Positions 13,060 through 64,000 of a stretch of 64,000 nucleotides of DNA are shown here, piece after piece. Each line of letters opens with the position of its first letter. The first letter of the stretch is position 1. The notes beneath the pieces are model-generated. The model had not been told where the DNA came from. It saw nothing but the letters and a program-made list of their open reading frames with translations, and did not search any database. The stretch covers positions 1-64,000 of the forward strand of contig CAMYMU010000037.1 of assembly GCA_947259575.1 (NCBI GenBank), written 5' to 3'. Source of the DNA: an uncultured Ectothiorhodospiraceae bacterium (lineage in GTDB: Bacteria; Pseudomonadota; Gammaproteobacteria; UBA6429; Thiohalophilaceae). Position numbers and translations under genes: made by a program.

Positions 13060-16000
13060 ATGGCGACGCTCGAACAACTTCTCAAAGAACGCATCCTGAT
13101 CCTCGATGGTGCCATGGGTAGCATGATTCAGACCTATAAGCTTGGAGAGGAGGAGTACCGTGGTGAGCGTTTTGCCGATTGGCCTTCAGACCTGAAGGGC
13201 AATAATGATCTATTGGTCTTAACTCAGCCGAAAATTATAAAGGATATACACAAAGCTTATCTTGATGCGGGCGCGGACATTATCGAGACCAATACGTTTA
13301 ATGCCAACTCGATATCGATGGCCGATTACAACATGCAGGAACTCGTCTACGAGATGAATGTAGCTGCTGCTAAGTTAGCGAGGGAGGCCTGTGATGATAT
13401 TTCTACACAAGATAAACCTCGTTTTGTTGCTGGTGGTATTGGTCCGTGTAATCGTTCTGCATCAGTAGTGATTGACGTTGATCGTCCTGGTTATCGTAAC
13501 GTTACTTTTGATGAACTAGTTGCAGCTTACAAAGAAGAGACCAAAGCGTTGCTCGATGGTGGAGTCGACCTGATCTTGATCGAAACTATTTTCGACACGC
13601 TAAATGCCAAAGCTGCGGTGTTTGCAGTAAAAGCGGTATTTGAAGATACAGGGAAAGAAGTGCCGATTATGATATCGGGCACGATTACAGATGAAGCCGG
13701 TCGAAATCTTGCGGGCCAAAATGTTGAAGCAGTCTATAACTCATTGCGTCATGCGGAGCCGATCTCATTTGGTCTTAACTGTGCATTTGGACCGGATAAA
13801 ATGAGACCGTATTTAGAGGAAATAGCTTCAATCTGTGATACGCATGTCTCTGCATATTCAAATGCGGGCTTACCAAATGAGTTTGGCGAGTTTGATCTTC
13901 TTGCTGAAGATATGGGGCCAATGATTGGTGAGTGGGCCGAAAGTGGTTTTCTAAATATTGTTGGTGGTTGTTGTGGTACCACGCCTGCACATATCAAAGC
14001 CATAGCCGACGCTGTTAGCAAATATTCGCCACGCAAAGTGAAACAACGAGACTTTACTACTCGCTTAAGTGGTATGGAAGCGTTCAATATCAATGATGAT
14101 TCTTTGTTTGTTAACGTTGGCGAACGCACCAACGTGACCGGTTCAGCTAAATTCAAACGACTCATCCTTGAAGAAAATTATGATGAGGCCCTGACTGTTG
14201 CACGCGAGCAGGTTGATAATGGTGCGCAGGTCATTGATGTCAACATGGATGAAGGTATGTTGGATGGTGTGCATGCCATGAAGACATTTTTGAATCTGAT
14301 TGCAAGCGAACCCGATATTGCTCGTGTTCCCGTTATGATTGATTCTTCAAAATGGGAGATTATCGAGGAAGGTCTAAAATGTATCGCTGGTAAAGGTATT
14401 GTTAACTCGATCTCGTTAAAAGAAGGCGAAGATAAGTTTCTTGAGCAGGCCAAGCTATGCCGTCGTTATGGTGCGGCAGTGATAGTCATGGCCTTTGATG
14501 AAACAGGACAGGCCGATACACAACAACGCAAGATCGAGATTTGTGAGCGCGCCTATAAAATTCTAACCGAGCAAGTTGGTTTCCCGCCGGAAGATATCAT
14601 CTTTGATCCGAATATATTTGCGGTTGCGACCGGTATTGAAGAACACAATAACTATGGCGTCGATTTTATCGAGGCTACCGGTTGGATCAAAAAGAATTTA
14701 CCGCACGCATTGATCAGCGGCGGTGTTAGTAATGTCTCATTCTCTTTCCGTGGGAATAACCCGGTACGTGAGGCTATTCATGCGGTGTTTTTATATCACG
14801 CGATTAAAAATGGTATGGACATGGGCATTGTCAATGCCAGTCAGTTGGCCGTCTATGATGATCTGCCTGGAGAGTTACGTGAAGCGGTTGAGGATGTAGT
14901 TCTTAATCGTCGCGATGATGCAACCGAGCGCTTACTTGATATTGCTGATAAATATAAAGGTGATGGCAAGGCGGTAGAGAAAAAAGAGGACCTGGAATGG
15001 CGAACCTGGGAAGTTGCTAAACGACTTGAACATGCCTTGGTAAAAGGGATCGATGCATTTGTCGTGGAAGACACAGAAGAGGCGCGTCAGCAGTTTGATC
15101 GACCGATCGAGGTAATTGAAGGCCCGTTAATGGATGGTATGAATGTAGTCGGTGATCTGTTTGGGGCTGGTAAAATGTTTTTACCTCAGGTCGTCAAGTC
15201 TGCGCGTGTAATGAAAAAAGCAGTCGCTTATCTATTGCCTTACATAGAAGCCGAGAAAACAGAAGGTGCCAGTAGTAACGGTAAGATCCTGATGGCGACT
15301 GTTAAAGGTGACGTACATGATATCGGTAAGAATATCGTCGGAGTCGTCTTGCAGTGTAATAATTTTGAGGTGATTGATATCGGCGTGATGGTTCCTGCAA
15401 GTAAGATCGTCGAAACAGCGAAAAAAGAAAACGTCGATATTATTGGTCTATCAGGTCTGATTACTCCCTCGTTGGATGAAATGGTGCATATGGCCAAGGA
15501 AATGGAGCGTCTTGAATTTGATATTCCATTACTGATTGGTGGTGCGACGACATCCAAGGCCCACACGGCGGTAAAGATTGAAAAGAACTATCGTGGGCCT
15601 ACCGTCTGGGTGAAAGATGCCTCCCGTGCAGTAGGTGTGGCCCAAAATCTTATTGGTGGTGAATCGAAAGAAAAGTTTGTCGCTGAGTTGCGTGCCGACT
15701 ATGAAAAAGTGCGCGAGGCACATGCTGGTCGTCGTGCGCAGATTAAGTGGTTATCGCTGGAAGCTGCGCGTGCGAATAAACTTGAACTTGACTGGGCGAA
15801 CTATACGCCCCCCGTACCTAAGCAATTAGGCGTGCAATCATTTGATGATATGCCACTGGAATTTTTAGTGCCCTACATAGACTGGACACCTTTCTTTCAT
15901 ACCTGGGAGATAAAAGGTAGCTATCCAAAGGTCTTCGATGACCCGGAAAAAGGTGAAGTCGCAAAACAGTTGTTTGATGATGCGCAGAAGATGTTATCTG

Positions 16001-60536: not shown

Positions 60537-61796
60537 TTAGTCGTAACGTTTGATGCGTGCTTTGATCAGTTTACGTTCGATTAGCTGATTTGCGAATGAC
60601 TCAAAGTCGAGGGGTTGATCTGGTTTTGAATTTACTAATGGCTGTAACGTCAGAATGTAATCCAGGATCGGCGTGTATAGTTTCATCACACGAACTTGTT
60701 TCAATCGTTCAATGATCTGGGCGGTTGTTTGGTCACTTTCTTTATGGCTGCCCGTAATAGCAAGCCGATAAAACAAATAAACAAGTTTACGGCTGTTATC
60801 ACAGAGTTGTCCGTAACGATCTTCTTGAGGAGTAATCTTGGGCGCGATGATACGCAACAGGACTGCCAGGGTTTGTGCCTCGGATTTGAGACGTTGGTTA
60901 TTCACATCGCTTAGAGCTAGAAACACAAAGTCGACCAGTGGAATAATTTTTTCTTTGGTACGCCCCGTGTAGTTAAGCAACTGTGTTTCGTATATTTTCG
61001 GGGCTAGTAAGAAAGCAGTGGCGAGCCATAATATATAGCGGCGTGGCTCGGCCTGATTCCAGGTCGATAAGGCCGATTCACAAACCTTGAGCAGCTCATC
61101 ATGATTCGTTGTGCGCAGCGCGGTGAGTAGTAGTTTGGAAAGTATTTTTTTTCTGACACTGGTCCAACTATTAAGAACGGGTAGTAACACATCGCTAGAA
61201 AGCGAGTCGTAGTCACTGTGATCGATGAATTGATACAAACCCGGCAGGTGGTCGGTGCCATGTTCGATCATGGCCTGCCAGAACGTGGTGAAGGCCGTTA
61301 TAGTTTCCTGCTTGCGTTGTTGCATAACCAAGCTTAACCACTTGTCATGTATCTCGGTTTTGTACGCGTAATGAAAACAAATCGCAGCTATCACTGTCTG
61401 TGAAGGAAGTTCAGTAACAGCATAGCGTGGGTCATCGGCAAACAGATCAAGTGCGGCGAGTAAGATATAACCCTCTGGTCGCTCCTCAGTAAACATCGAA
61501 TCCGTGATTTCCTGCACGGAGGGGAAAACGGCCTGGTTAAGTACAGCGTCAAAACCGGTGATGATGTCTTCGGCCAGGCTCGGGTTAGCCAGTATCTTGA
61601 TGCGATGTTGCGGCGGAATTGTATTATCGATATCAAGATACATACCGAGATAAGCCTTGGCAAATCGCTCAAGCTGCTCGATATTTTGACCTGATTTTAT
61701 CTTATTAATGACCGGTAGTAGCAACTGATCATTTTCGAACCGGGTGCGCTCGTGTTCACGATAATCGAGAGGATATAAGGTTTCGATAGCGGTCAT
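60537..61796 (-). CDS. Hypothetical protein, 419 aa.
   Basis: Long clean ORF with complex composition. No motif recognised. Confidence 0.5.
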   Translation of the reverse strand: MTAIETLYPLDYREHERTRFENDQLLLPVINKIKSGQNIEQLERFAKAYLGMYLDIDNTIPPQHRIKILANPSLAEDIITGFDAVLNQAVFPSVQEITDSMFTEERPEGYILLAALDLFADDPRYAVTELPSQTVIAAICFHYAYKTEIHDKWLSLVMQQRKQETITAFTTFWQAMIEHGTDHLPGLYQFIDHSDYDSLSSDVLLPVLNSWTSVRKKILSKLLLTALRTTNHDELLKVCESALSTWNQAEPRRYILWLATAFLLAPKIYETQLLNYTGRTKEKIIPLVDFVFLALSDVNNQRLKSEAQTLAVLLRIIAPKITPQEDRYGQLCDNSRKLVYLFYRLAITGSHKESDQTTAQIIERLKQVRVMKLYTPILDYILTLQPLVNSKPDQPLDFESFANQLIERKLIKARIKRYD

Positions 61797-61875
61797 GTGC
61801 TGAGTTTAACATAGCCAAGGTGGTGAAAGAGATCAGCACCCGTCGCGGCTAAATCGATCGAGGTTCAAATATAAG

Positions 61876-61901
61876 CCCCGCACATCCTGCGGGGTTTTTT
61901 T
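61876..61901 (+). terminator. Orphan plus-strand rho-independent terminator in the 550-bp spacer.
   Basis: CCCCGCA-CATCC-TGCGGGG followed by T7. No plus-strand CDS upstream. Confidence 0.5.
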
Positions 61902-62345
61902 ATATATAAACTTTTACATCCTACAGGCTTATATTGTTTCGACGATTCGGCACCCACAATATCTAAATAGAACTTTAATGTCATAAATTCTCTGTAGAAT
62001 TAGCATTTCAAATTAGATTAAATTTGAAATAAGTGCGCCTATAAACATGCATTTTTTTAGTGCCAACTATATTGGCTAAATATTGTCACTATGTGGATTT
62101 AGACTAAGTGTAAAAACTAGACAAAAACATGATCTAGATCATTCACTTACGGTAGAATAAGCGCATTATTAGAAGCAAGTTTAGGTGTGTTAGATAATAA
62201 AAAGTTGTACAAATAACCACTGGAAGAAGCAAATGCCCGTAAGAGGCAGCGCATAGGAAGTTCAGTATTAAATTCTTCTTTTCAGTGTGAGATGGGTGTC
62301 TAGCACTACTTCAGTGAGCTATATGGAATGTGACTGGAGGGTGTC

Positions 62346-64000
62346 ATGAATACTATAATCAGAAGCTTTTCGAGCGCTGGCATCTTTTTGCTAACTCTGG
62401 TTTATACCCAGAGTGTATTTGGATTTAGTTCAGGCGTTAATGGTTACTCAACTAATCCTGCAACAAATGCCGGAAATTCTTGCGCCTTATGCCACTCTGG
62501 CGGTACGGCGCCAACTATCACCCTGACTGGTCCCGTCTCGGTTCAGCCTGGTACCGTTAATACCTATACATTGACGATTTCTGGTGGCCAGGCAAATTCT
62601 GGTGGCCTGGATGTGAGTGTTGATGCGGGCACTTTAATCAGCACATTAGCCAATACAAAACTGCAGTCGGGTGAGGTTACACATACCCAGCGTGCGTTGG
62701 CCGATCCAAATGGGGATGTTGCCTGGAGCTTCGATTGGCAGGCACCTACTACACTCGGTGATTACACTATATATAGTGCTGGGCTTTCAACCAACGCCGA
62801 TAGCAGTACGACGGGGGATGCGGTTGCTAGTCTGGCAACAACGGTAACTGTCTCAGCCGGGGCTGCTCAGCCACCGGTTGCGGTCATCATGGCCCCACAA
62901 ACTGCCCAGGTTGACACCGTCGTCGACTTTGATGGTTCAAATTCCCAGGATCCCGATAGCACGATTGTTTCTTATGAGTGGGATTTTGGAGATGGCAGCA
63001 CGGCTACCGGAGCATTAACCAACCATATCTATACGGCTGCAGGTACCTATACGGTAACCCTGACGGTTACTGATGACACCAATTTAAGCGATACCACTTT
63101 CCGCGATATCAGTGTAGGTGGTGTGATGATACCGATTGCCAACCCAGGTGGTCCTTATGTTGGCATTGAAGGACAACCCGTTGACTTTGATGGTTCCCAG
63201 TCTACACATGTTAGTCCCATCACCAATTACATCTGGGACTTTGGGGATGGATCGCCCGTTGAGGCATATGCGGTATCTACCGTCAGTCACACTTATGCTC
63301 AGCCTGGTGCCTACACTGTGACCCTGGCAGTTCAAGATGCCAATAATATTACCGGTGCTGCCAGCACGACTGTAGTGATTGACTCAATCACACCACCCCC
63401 TCCACCACCGGAGACGGACGGCCCAACGCTGTATAGCAACAACTGCATGGCCTGCCACGGAGCACTGGCCACCAGCAGTAAACTTAACCGCACAGCAGCG
63501 CAGATCCAGGGTGCTATTGATGCCAACACCGGTGGCATGGGTGGACTAAGTACTTTGTCGGCAATCCAGGTTCAGGCGATCGCTGATGCCCTGGTCAGTA
63601 CAACTCCACCACCTCCACCACCAACCGATGGCCCCACGCTATATGCTAATAACTGTATGGCTTGCCATGGACCACTGGCTACCAGCGCAAAATTGAATCG
63701 TAGTGCTAGCCAGATCCAGGCGGCGATTGATGCCAACACCGGTGGTATGGGTGGACTTAGTGGCTTAACTTCAACCGAAGTGCAGGCCATTGCAGATGCC
63801 CTGGTGACGACTACACCTCCACCACCACCTCCAACTGATGGTCCTACCTTATATGACAACAATTGCATGGCTTGTCATGGGCCACTGGCCAGCAGTACGA
63901 AACTGAATCGTACCGCTGTACAGATCCAGGCGGCGATTGATGCCAACACCGGTGGTATGGGCGGGCTCACTTTGACGATAACGGAGGTTCAGGCGATTGC
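62346..64000 (+). CDS. Secreted multidomain protein (partial; the 3' end runs off the window). Domain order: signal peptide, N-terminal region with CALCH, two PKD domains, then at least three 70-aa CxxCH heme-motif repeats joined by poly-Pro linkers.
   Basis: GGAGGG RBS. Signal peptide. Two WDFGDGS PKD cores. The repeated unit TDGPTLY-NNCMACHG-LA-S-KLNR-A-QIQ-AIDANTGGMGGL...QAIADAL looks like a class I c-type cytochrome, with CxxCH plus a downstream Met. PPPPPPP linkers. Confidence 0.75.
   Translation, partial: MNTIIRSFSSAGIFLLTLVYTQSVFGFSSGVNGYSTNPATNAGNSCALCHSGGTAPTITLTGPVSVQPGTVNTYTLTISGGQANSGGLDVSVDAGTLISTLANTKLQSGEVTHTQRALADPNGDVAWSFDWQAPTTLGDYTIYSAGLSTNADSSTTGDAVASLATTVTVSAGAAQPPVAVIMAPQTAQVDTVVDFDGSNSQDPDSTIVSYEWDFGDGSTATGALTNHIYTAAGTYTVTLTVTDDTNLSDTTFRDISVGGVMIPIANPGGPYVGIEGQPVDFDGSQSTHVSPITNYIWDFGDGSPVEAYAVSTVSHTYAQPGAYTVTLAVQDANNITGAASTTVVIDSITPPPPPPETDGPTLYSNNCMACHGALATSSKLNRTAAQIQGAIDANTGGMGGLSTLSAIQVQAIADALVSTTPPPPPPTDGPTLYANNCMACHGPLATSAKLNRSASQIQAAIDANTGGMGGLSGLTSTEVQAIADALVTTTPPPPPPTDGPTLYDNNCMACHGPLASSTKLNRTAVQIQAAIDANTGGMGGLTLTITEVQAI
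63393..64000 (+). repeat. 210-bp in-frame tandem repeat, at least 2.9 copies (starts about 63393, 63603, 63813), continuing beyond the window.
   Basis: Copies are about 80-85% identical. Each begins with the Pro-codon run CCACCnCCTCCACCACC and contains AACTGCATGGCCTGCCACGG. The minus-strand ORFs at 63332-63538 and 63572-63868 are antisense artefacts of the Pro/Gly codon runs. Confidence 0.8.

Follow-up and report, generated by a model that had tools for sequence, protein, structure and literature searches.

A predicted secreted cytochrome with PgcA-type haem modules, the probable outer partner of an MtrC-less MtrAB conduit in an uncultured gammaproteobacterium

What does a gammaproteobacterium do with a protein that carries a row of small haem modules behind two PKD domains, and with what would such a protein exchange electrons? 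The question is raised by the partial open reading frame (ORF) that starts at position 62346 on the forward strand of contig CAMYMU010000037.1 (assembly GCA_947259575.1, an uncultured Ectothiorhodospiraceae bacterium), of which the first 64,000 nt were analysed as a whole and are called the window here. We propose that this ORF is the 5' part of the gene of a secreted, PgcA-type multi-haem cytochrome (hereafter the string protein) that serves as the outer partner of an MtrAB conduit lacking MtrC, and we give this reading a probability of about 60%. In architecture and in gene context the locus departs from the PgcA-type tethered-haem cytochromes, a class defined recently, but it is a variant of them and not something categorically new; what look new are its gammaproteobacterial host, an N-terminal half unlike that of PgcA, and the MtrAB gene context. 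Judged by MetH, the nearest named relatives of the host are Thiohalophilus, Thiohalomonadales and Woeseiaceae, at ~75% identity.

An earlier note, made from the letters of this DNA, had described a secreted protein with a signal peptide, a CALCH-containing N-terminal region, two PKD domains and three CxxCH repeats of ~70 amino acids (aa), and all of these features are present where it had placed them; its PPPPPPP spacers, however, are runs of six prolines and not seven. The features of this ORF, all on the forward strand, are as follows.

62336..62340, forward strand: Shine-Dalgarno-like GGAGG, read from the sequence, 5 nt ahead of the ATG
62346..64000, forward strand: partial ORF of the predicted secreted multi-haem string cytochrome, from translation; 551 codons, no stop, open at the window end
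62346..62423, forward strand: Sec-type signal peptide, aa 1-26, recognized by eye; predicted cleavage between ...SVFG and FSSG; no lipobox Cys
62424..62855, forward strand: N-terminal, predicted haem-binding beta-sandwich, choice-of-anchor V, from the NF041895 match
62481-62495, forward strand: CALCH, aa 46-50, ~20 residues past the predicted mature N-terminus
62868..63098, forward strand: PKD domain 1, aa 175-251, from PF18911 and PF00801
63135..63380, forward strand: PKD domain 2, aa ~264-345, from the second PF18911 stretch, a TIGR00864 stretch (aa 264-343) and the AlphaFold model
63393..63602, forward strand: haem module 1, aa 350-419, from PF13442, PF00034 and motif positions; PPPPPP 63393-63410, CMACH 63444-63458, distal Met398 63537-63539
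63603..63812, forward strand: haem module 2, aa 420-489, from a whole-module match to PgcA domains I and II; PPPPPP 63606-63623, CMACH 63654-63668, Met468 63747-63749
63813..64000, forward strand: haem module 3, aa 490-551, cut by the window end, from translation and motif positions; PPPPPP 63816-63833, CMACH 63864-63878, Met538 63957-63959

The evidence that carries our reading begins with the modules themselves. The CMACH motifs (aa 367-371, 437-441 and 507-511) mark three 70-aa units, each running from PPPPPP through TDGPTLYxNNCMACHG and a Met at His+27 to a QAIADAL helix, and Tandem Repeats Finder (TRF) reports the same array at 63390-63961 with a period of 210 bp, 2.7 copies and 78% matches. 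The Pfam search that the earlier note had suggested matched all three families that it named, namely Cytochrome_CBB3 (PF13442, E 1.1e-18, 67.7 bits vs a cut-off of 27, three stretches), Cytochrom_C (PF00034, 53.3 bits vs a cut-off of 21.3, three stretches) and PKD (PF18911, E 4.6e-43, 145.6 bits vs a cut-off of 27, two stretches). When a 71-aa unit was compared with all Protein Data Bank (PDB) sequences, residues 8-69 aligned with 8qj6_A (E 1.7e-16) and 8qjg_A (E 3.6e-15), entries whose identities we confirmed as the monohaem domains I and II of PgcA from Geobacter sulfurreducens; domain III (8qk0) matched weakly (E 0.89). An observation at E 1.7e-16 lies far beyond chance. The haems of the two matched PgcA domains are ligated by His274/Met301 and His365/Met392 (PMC11520253), and the spacing of +27 between His274 and Met301 recurs in all three modules of the window. 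The modules are thus, as read from their sequences, class-I cytochromes c of ~64 aa with a CxxCH motif and, where PgcA has its distal ligand, a Met.

The AlphaFold2 model of aa 27-551 agrees with separate beads. Its domains are confident (block means of the predicted local distance difference test, pLDDT, of ~75-96; PKD domain 1 is all-beta at ~90), pLDDT falls below 50 in each of the three proline runs and over the six residues with which the model begins, and the predicted template modelling score (pTM) is 0.41, indicating no fixed arrangement between domains. The six-proline linkers are accordingly predicted by the model to be unstructured. The picture of monohaem cytochrome beads on a string is borne out by this model and by the homology to PgcA domains, and, PgcA being the founding "haems on a string" cytochrome, it is of a kind already known. 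That the linkers are rigid polyproline rods, as had also been suggested, is not established: they count only six prolines, and the proline-rich linkers of PgcA behave as flexible tethers (PMC11520253). The proline runs are encoded mostly by CCA codons (63393-63410, 63606-63623 and 63816-63833), simple-repeat DNA that could permit in-frame changes of linker length; with ~10 such runs in the full gene, translation is expected to be strongly dependent on elongation factor P.

The same architecture is found in a wider family. A search of 5.8 billion proteins returned same-architecture proteins of 485-936 aa, up to 72% identical, whose named sources are uncultured Gammaproteobacteria such as an Acidiferrobacterales metagenome-assembled genome; over all the homologues collected, lengths reach from 485 to 1092 aa. 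More than 40 proteins share the N-terminal domain and the architecture, and the layout of the signal peptide is the same across 45 family members. Their modules, 1-10 in number, fall into two types: those of type A resemble the PgcA domains and are the ones present in the window, and those of type B follow the pattern CxxCHGPGGTGG...EPLMNSISL; some members combine additional PKD domains with just 0-2 modules. In 30 family proteins a Met occupies a distal-ligand position in 133 of the 137 modules, and one module only has a His candidate. A HMMER scan with module 2 as query, run over all of a set of 1.84 billion representative proteins, gave 1084 proteins at E<=1e-3 (433 at E<=1e-10), in several architectures and with up to 15 matched stretches per protein, so that the module and the string principle are widespread, not rare. 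The arrangement had been called unusual, which holds in part only, given this count and a class described between 2017 and 2024. Two homologues, P0047 and P0075 (L094, GCA_975971605.1), are labelled "Kaarinaea lacus", on a contig that carries MtrA and MtrB/PioB; we rejected the label, as the name belongs to a Nostocales cyanobacterium and the contig probably comes from an associated proteobacterium or a contaminant.

Since the window ends inside the gene, its downstream context had to be taken from relatives. Scans of genome and metagenome contigs returned no contig of the same genome with the rest of the gene, and the best contig match (L088, 1354 bp) shows 92% aa identity over aa 1-170 and 87% nt identity. 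As a collinear proxy for the missing part we used L089, a 254-kb metagenome contig whose gene order matches that of the window for five or more genes upstream of the string gene, with aa identities of 62-88% (DAHP synthase, 87.5%; HDOD protein, 81%; hydrolase, 78%; 419-aa ORF, 64%; Hpt protein, 62%). In L089, and likewise in L090, the string gene encodes 1092 aa with 11 CxxCH motifs and modules in the order A A A A B B A A B B. From L089 we infer that the full protein of the window would have ~10 modules and 11 CxxCH motifs and be encoded by the first gene of an Mtr-type cluster.

Downstream of the string gene in both contigs stand a 118-aa lipoprotein monohaem cytochrome, an MtrA/DmsE-family decahaem cytochrome and an MtrB/PioB porin, in this order. 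The decahaem protein (319 aa) matches TIGR03508 (DmsE/MtrA) at E 2e-89 and has its best PDB match in chain A of 6r2q (E 6.8e-94), which we take to be MtrA of the Shewanella baltica MtrCAB complex; the local PDB copy lists this chain as "Cystathionine beta-synthase", a label that looks wrong. The porin that follows matches TIGR03509 (MtrB/PioB) at E 1e-131, and the opposite strand encodes a PdsA-like dihaem (E 1.8e-47, below the model cut-off) and a NapC/NirT (CymA-type) tetrahaem cytochrome (E 6.5e-92). The gene order of L089 recurs in L083/L084, L085, L086 and L087, while the L081 contig breaks off inside its MtrA gene. In L094 and L095, at 34-36% identity, the string gene lies divergently beside MtrA and MtrB, indicating that the linkage survived a rearrangement. 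Altogether, the string gene adjoins MtrA/MtrB-type genes in 9 of 11 related loci, usually together with PdsA-like and CymA-like cytochromes, and no MtrC-like decahaem was found in any of the MtrAB-linked loci. The string protein is not itself an MtrC, as it scores 21.5 bits with TIGR03507 (MtrC/OmcA) against a cut-off of 209.3. The name MtoC was rejected for its gene as well, because in the literature it denotes a CymA-like inner-membrane protein. The core of the earlier suggestion, an extracellular or periplasmic electron conduit, is supported by this adjacency to MtrA/MtrB conduit genes. A literature search found no paper describing a string gene beside MtrAB, nor one describing a PKD/choice-of-anchor plus multihaem architecture.

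Taken together, module identity and gene context suggest that the string protein is probably the outward-facing partner of an MtrAB conduit without MtrC. We propose that it is exported from the cell; that it would leave the periplasm follows from its PKD domains, a domain family named for surface anchors, the extracellular location of PgcA and a gene position in the mtrC slot. Once outside, it could be held near the conduit by its N-terminal haem domain and PKD stalk, by the lipoprotein cytochrome, or by both, and electrons would be relayed from the outer end of MtrA to acceptors outside the cell, or to it from donors there, as neighbouring tethered modules collide and exchange electrons, in the way measured for PgcA. 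With ~10 modules and linkers of ~12-14 residues, its reach may amount to some tens of nm, by extrapolation from 18 nm for three PgcA domains. As to the direction of flow, Nash et al. tie an acidic residue at His+7 to Fe(III) stabilisation in PgcA. The sequences here lean towards electron uptake or higher-potential partners, as all modules are of the His/Met type, none has an acidic residue at His+7, and there is no reductase module of the His/His domain-III type.

Several points weigh against this reading. The window holds 2.9 modules, and the rest of the gene as well as the Mtr genes are extrapolated from relatives that are 72-77% identical. Apart from the Sec signal peptide, the sequence shows no export signal, the string protein having no lipobox and its homologues no C-terminal sorting signal; in the full-length homologues, neither MYXO-CTERM, PEP-CTERM or similar signals nor a hydrophobic anchor were seen at the C-terminus. 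Two loci, L082 and L096, have no adjacent MtrAB. The covalent haem, its ligation and the extracellular location of the string protein are all predictions. Finally, the lean towards uptake is tempered by PgcA itself, whose His/Met domains lie at -48 and -65 mV (PMC10570954), so that His/Met ligation does not fix the direction of flow; nor can that direction be read from the genes in clusters of the MtoAB/PioAB type (PMC8805035).

The C-termini of the full-length homologues are short and Gly/His/Asp-rich or poly-Asp (e.g., GYGGYGGHGGHGGHD, GNDGHDGGDHGDGHGDD and DDDDDDDDDDDEKD) and might bind metal ions; such tails occur in L089 (~13200-13276), P0001, P0007, P0014, P0017 and P0018.

A Sec signal alone is compatible with a periplasmic location, and the string protein could then carry electrons from a CymA-like inner-membrane quinol dehydrogenase to MtrA, beside or instead of soluble shuttles. 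Class-I His/Met cytochromes are typically periplasmic, which speaks for this location, as does the want of a lipobox or sorting tag. A string of ~10 modules could moreover bridge a periplasm of 20-25 nm, again extrapolating from 18 nm for three domains (PMC11520253). We nevertheless consider a periplasmic string unlikely: among the genes of the clusters there is already one for a PdsA-like periplasmic dihaem shuttle, PKD and choice-of-anchor domains typify proteins that are secreted or at the surface, the gene occupies the position of mtrC, and PgcA, the characterised protein to which the modules are most closely related, is extracellular (PMC5732950).

The two loci without adjacent MtrAB also bear on a different reading, in which the string protein is a redox-linked adhesin, or a donor to another extracellular enzyme or process such as peroxide or metal detoxification, and its MtrAB neighbourhood is incidental or regulatory. 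Members with few or no modules and additional PKD domains would fit an adhesin, and the Gly/His/Asp-rich tails might bind metal ions; however, linkage to MtrAB in nine of the 11 loci, kept in two gene orders, and the absence of any enzyme domain from the ORF protein in Pfam and NCBIfam searches make such a role quite improbable.

The history of the repeats disposes of the remaining alternative. The earlier note took the 210-bp period as a sign of recent duplication; yet module pairs within the gene share 65-72% of their nucleotides and 71-80% of their residues, with 20-27 identical residues per pair written in different codons, while orthologous modules in other genomes are 88-91% identical. 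Identity to the counterpart module is 89% (L090) and 88% (P0001) for module 1 and 91% (L089 and L090) for module 2, and a one-residue deletion (GGLTLT) in module 3 is common to module 3 of L090. Since orthologous modules are closer to each other than the paralogous ones of the gene, the repeat array is old and, on its sequences, under purifying selection, and recent duplication is rejected. The haem units are also the best conserved part of the protein in the comparison with L089 and L090 (81-90% identical, vs 66-79% for the N-terminal and PKD parts), which runs counter to a hypervariable surface protein, and a collapsed-repeat artefact is contradicted by module order and an indel that recur in independent assemblies. 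Thus, a contingency surface protein with fast repeat turnover, or a collapsed array, in either case with incidental CxxCH motifs, is highly improbable in spite of a module number that varies from 1 to 10 between lineages and of proline runs that are largely CCA-rich simple-repeat DNA in the TRF consensus, because units that differ at 28-35% of DNA positions while keeping 71-80% of their residues match a solved haem domain over its full length.

The N-terminal half sets the string protein apart. Its first domain (aa 17-162) matches the NCBIfam family NF041895, choice_anch_V (E 1.4e-39, 135.5 bits vs a cut-off of 42); the equivalog MXAN_6652 scores 125 bits against a cut-off of 200, so that the protein is not MXAN_6652. 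The name choice-of-anchor V refers to the varied cell-surface anchors of the family (NCBIfam NF041895). An AlphaFold2 model built on a 45-sequence alignment is a beta-sandwich (pLDDT 90.9, pTM 0.87). In the family alignment C20, C23 and H24 are invariant, there is no conserved His, Met or Lys besides the His of the CxxCH motif, and the mature N-terminus is conserved as [FYL]-[SNP]-x-G-[IV]-x-G-[YFH]-S-G. That no side chain is conserved as a sixth ligand would agree with the arrangement of cytochrome f, where the N-terminal amino group ligates the haem. In that protein the haem residues are Tyr1, Cys21, Cys24 and His25, and the amino group of Tyr1 is the sixth ligand. Both the large domain of cytochrome f (PetA) and the present domain have the CxxCH ~20 residues past the mature N-terminus, with the first strands then in the same register; unlike cytochrome f, the present domain has neither a small domain nor a membrane anchor. 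Neither the single sequence of the N-terminal domain nor its profile had a significant match among PDB sequences, and in the profile search cytochrome f was absent at E<=10. An hhalign comparison with an approximate cytochrome f sequence gave a probability of 5.5% and lends the likeness no support, and Foldseek ranks cohesin, SoxY and generic Ig-like folds ahead for the model, not cytochrome f. On sequence and model, a cytochrome-f-like N-terminal domain is a lead only, with about even odds. Behind it, the two PKD domains each carry the WDFGDG motif (YEWDFGDG and YIWDFGDG).

A second component may belong to the outer side. In the loci listed below, the string gene is followed by a conserved lipoprotein of 118-132 aa with a lipobox of the form L-A/T/S-G/S/T/N-C, a Pro-rich tether and one class-I cytochrome c domain (YYQxNCxxCHK).

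L089: 13339-13695
L090: 13216-13572
L081: 12871-13230
L082: 12075-12440
L083: 11747-12106
L085: 10017-10415
L086: 11709-12098
L087: 12220-12588

In L089 it has an LAGC lipobox, then the Pro-rich tether and one CxxCH. It has no match in NCBIfam and only weak matches in PDB (cytochrome c6 and c555). In L094 (12494-13171) and L095 (12480-13187) its place is taken by a cadherin/Big_9 protein of 225-235 aa with a single CxxCH. The lipoprotein cytochrome may be a lipid-anchored adaptor. A more specific proposal, which we advance tentatively and hold to be possible rather than probable, is that a two-part outer module replaces MtrC in gammaproteobacteria near sulfur oxidisers (Thiohalophilus, Thiohalomonadales): a lipid-anchored monohaem cytochrome would be joined by a secreted string of up to 11 haems on a PKD stalk, with a base of cytochrome f fold ligated by its N-terminal amino group.

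How does the string protein compare with known systems? PgcA (GSU1761) is an extracellular trihaem cytochrome needed for the reduction of Fe(III) and Mn(IV) oxides (PMC5732950). Its domains, with structures in PDB 8QJ6, 8QJG and 8QK0, are separated by (PT)x linkers and tumble independently, the protein stretches up to 18 nm, and electrons move by "tethered diffusion" and not along a packed haem wire; its authors proposed a new class, "haem-tethered redox strings", with paralogues of 3-14 haems in other Desulfuromonadia (PMC10570954, PMC11520253). The string protein resembles PgcA in its monohaem class-I modules of ~65 aa, whose homology extends from end to end (E 1.7e-16, with about half of the aligned residues identical by eye), in the His/Met spacing, in proline-rich, structure-less linkers between modules, in a module number that varies among relatives, and in its tie to extracellular electron transfer. 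It differs in having neither a lipobox, such as the LAGC of PgcA, nor the cleaved "secretion domain" of that protein, its N-terminal half being the CxxCH beta-sandwich and the two PKD domains, and in linkers that are short PPPPPP runs instead of long (PT)x. Neither the string protein nor its family has a module of the His/His domain-III type, the low-potential mineral reductase of PgcA, and His+7 is Ser, Ala or Thr where PgcA has the acidic Glu281 and Asp372. The host here is a gammaproteobacterium, and in relatives the gene lies within an MtrAB-type cluster.

With MtrC/OmcA of the Shewanella MtrCAB complex the string protein shares a gene directly upstream of mtrA-mtrB, in the position of mtrC, and the predicted part of an outward-facing conduit partner. 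The two are not homologous, however; the haems of the string sit on separate tethered domains, whereas those of MtrC/OmcA form a packed staggered-cross wire, and the string protein does not belong to the lipoproteins; the lipoprotein here is a monohaem cytochrome of 118 aa, encoded separately by an adjoining gene. The MtoAB/PioAB clusters of iron oxidisers have no MtrC-like outer component, MtoC and MtoD being a CymA-like protein and a periplasmic cytochrome (PMC8805035). These clusters (Sideroxydans, Gallionella, Rhodopseudomonas), like mtrCAB-pdsA-cymA of Aeromonas and Vibrio, group an MtrA/DmsE decahaem, an MtrB/PioB porin, a periplasmic shuttle and a CymA/NapC-type dehydrogenase, as here (PMC8805035); in contrast to MtoAB/PioAB, string and lipoprotein monohaem genes precede mtrA in the present clusters. 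UetJ of "Ca. Tenderia electrophaga" is likewise a predicted extracellular multi-haem cytochrome (11 haems) of an uncultured gammaproteobacterial lithoautotroph, with a porin-type conduit adjacent, but it is a rigid bar of packed haems without other domains, PgcA-type modules, PKD or MtrAB (bioRxiv 10.1101/2022.05.06.490989).

Upstream of the string gene, the window holds a 419-aa ORF without a Pfam match (60537-61796, reverse strand), which is divergent from the cytochrome gene and has the same position in L089. The 549-bp intergenic region between them (61797-62345), with no annotated forward-strand gene upstream, contains a hairpin resembling a strong terminator (61873-61897, forward strand; a 10-pair stem with six G-C pairs, followed by a T run) that could terminate a small transcript or be a bidirectional or insulating element before the cytochrome gene. 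An Rfam search of the whole window gave no match.

The tethered-haem class, whose recognition dates from 2023-24, has so far rested on one Geobacter protein, with only Desulfuromonadia paralogues named, and the present family reuses the same module on a different chassis in a different phylum-level lineage. Its gene is genetically coupled to MtrAB, the best-understood outer-membrane conduit, in the slot normally held by that of MtrC. The string protein is therefore a concrete candidate for the means by which Mto/Pio-type conduits, which have no MtrC, might make contact with redox partners that are solid or far away, and the natural series of 1-10 modules lends itself to testing reach against string length. 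Should the two-part outer module proposed above be real, it would represent a second way, unrelated by homology, of building the outer end of the Mtr conduit; and should the lead on the N-terminal domain of the string protein be true as well, this would be the first cytochrome-f-like domain outside b6f complexes, which would matter for the evolution of that fold.

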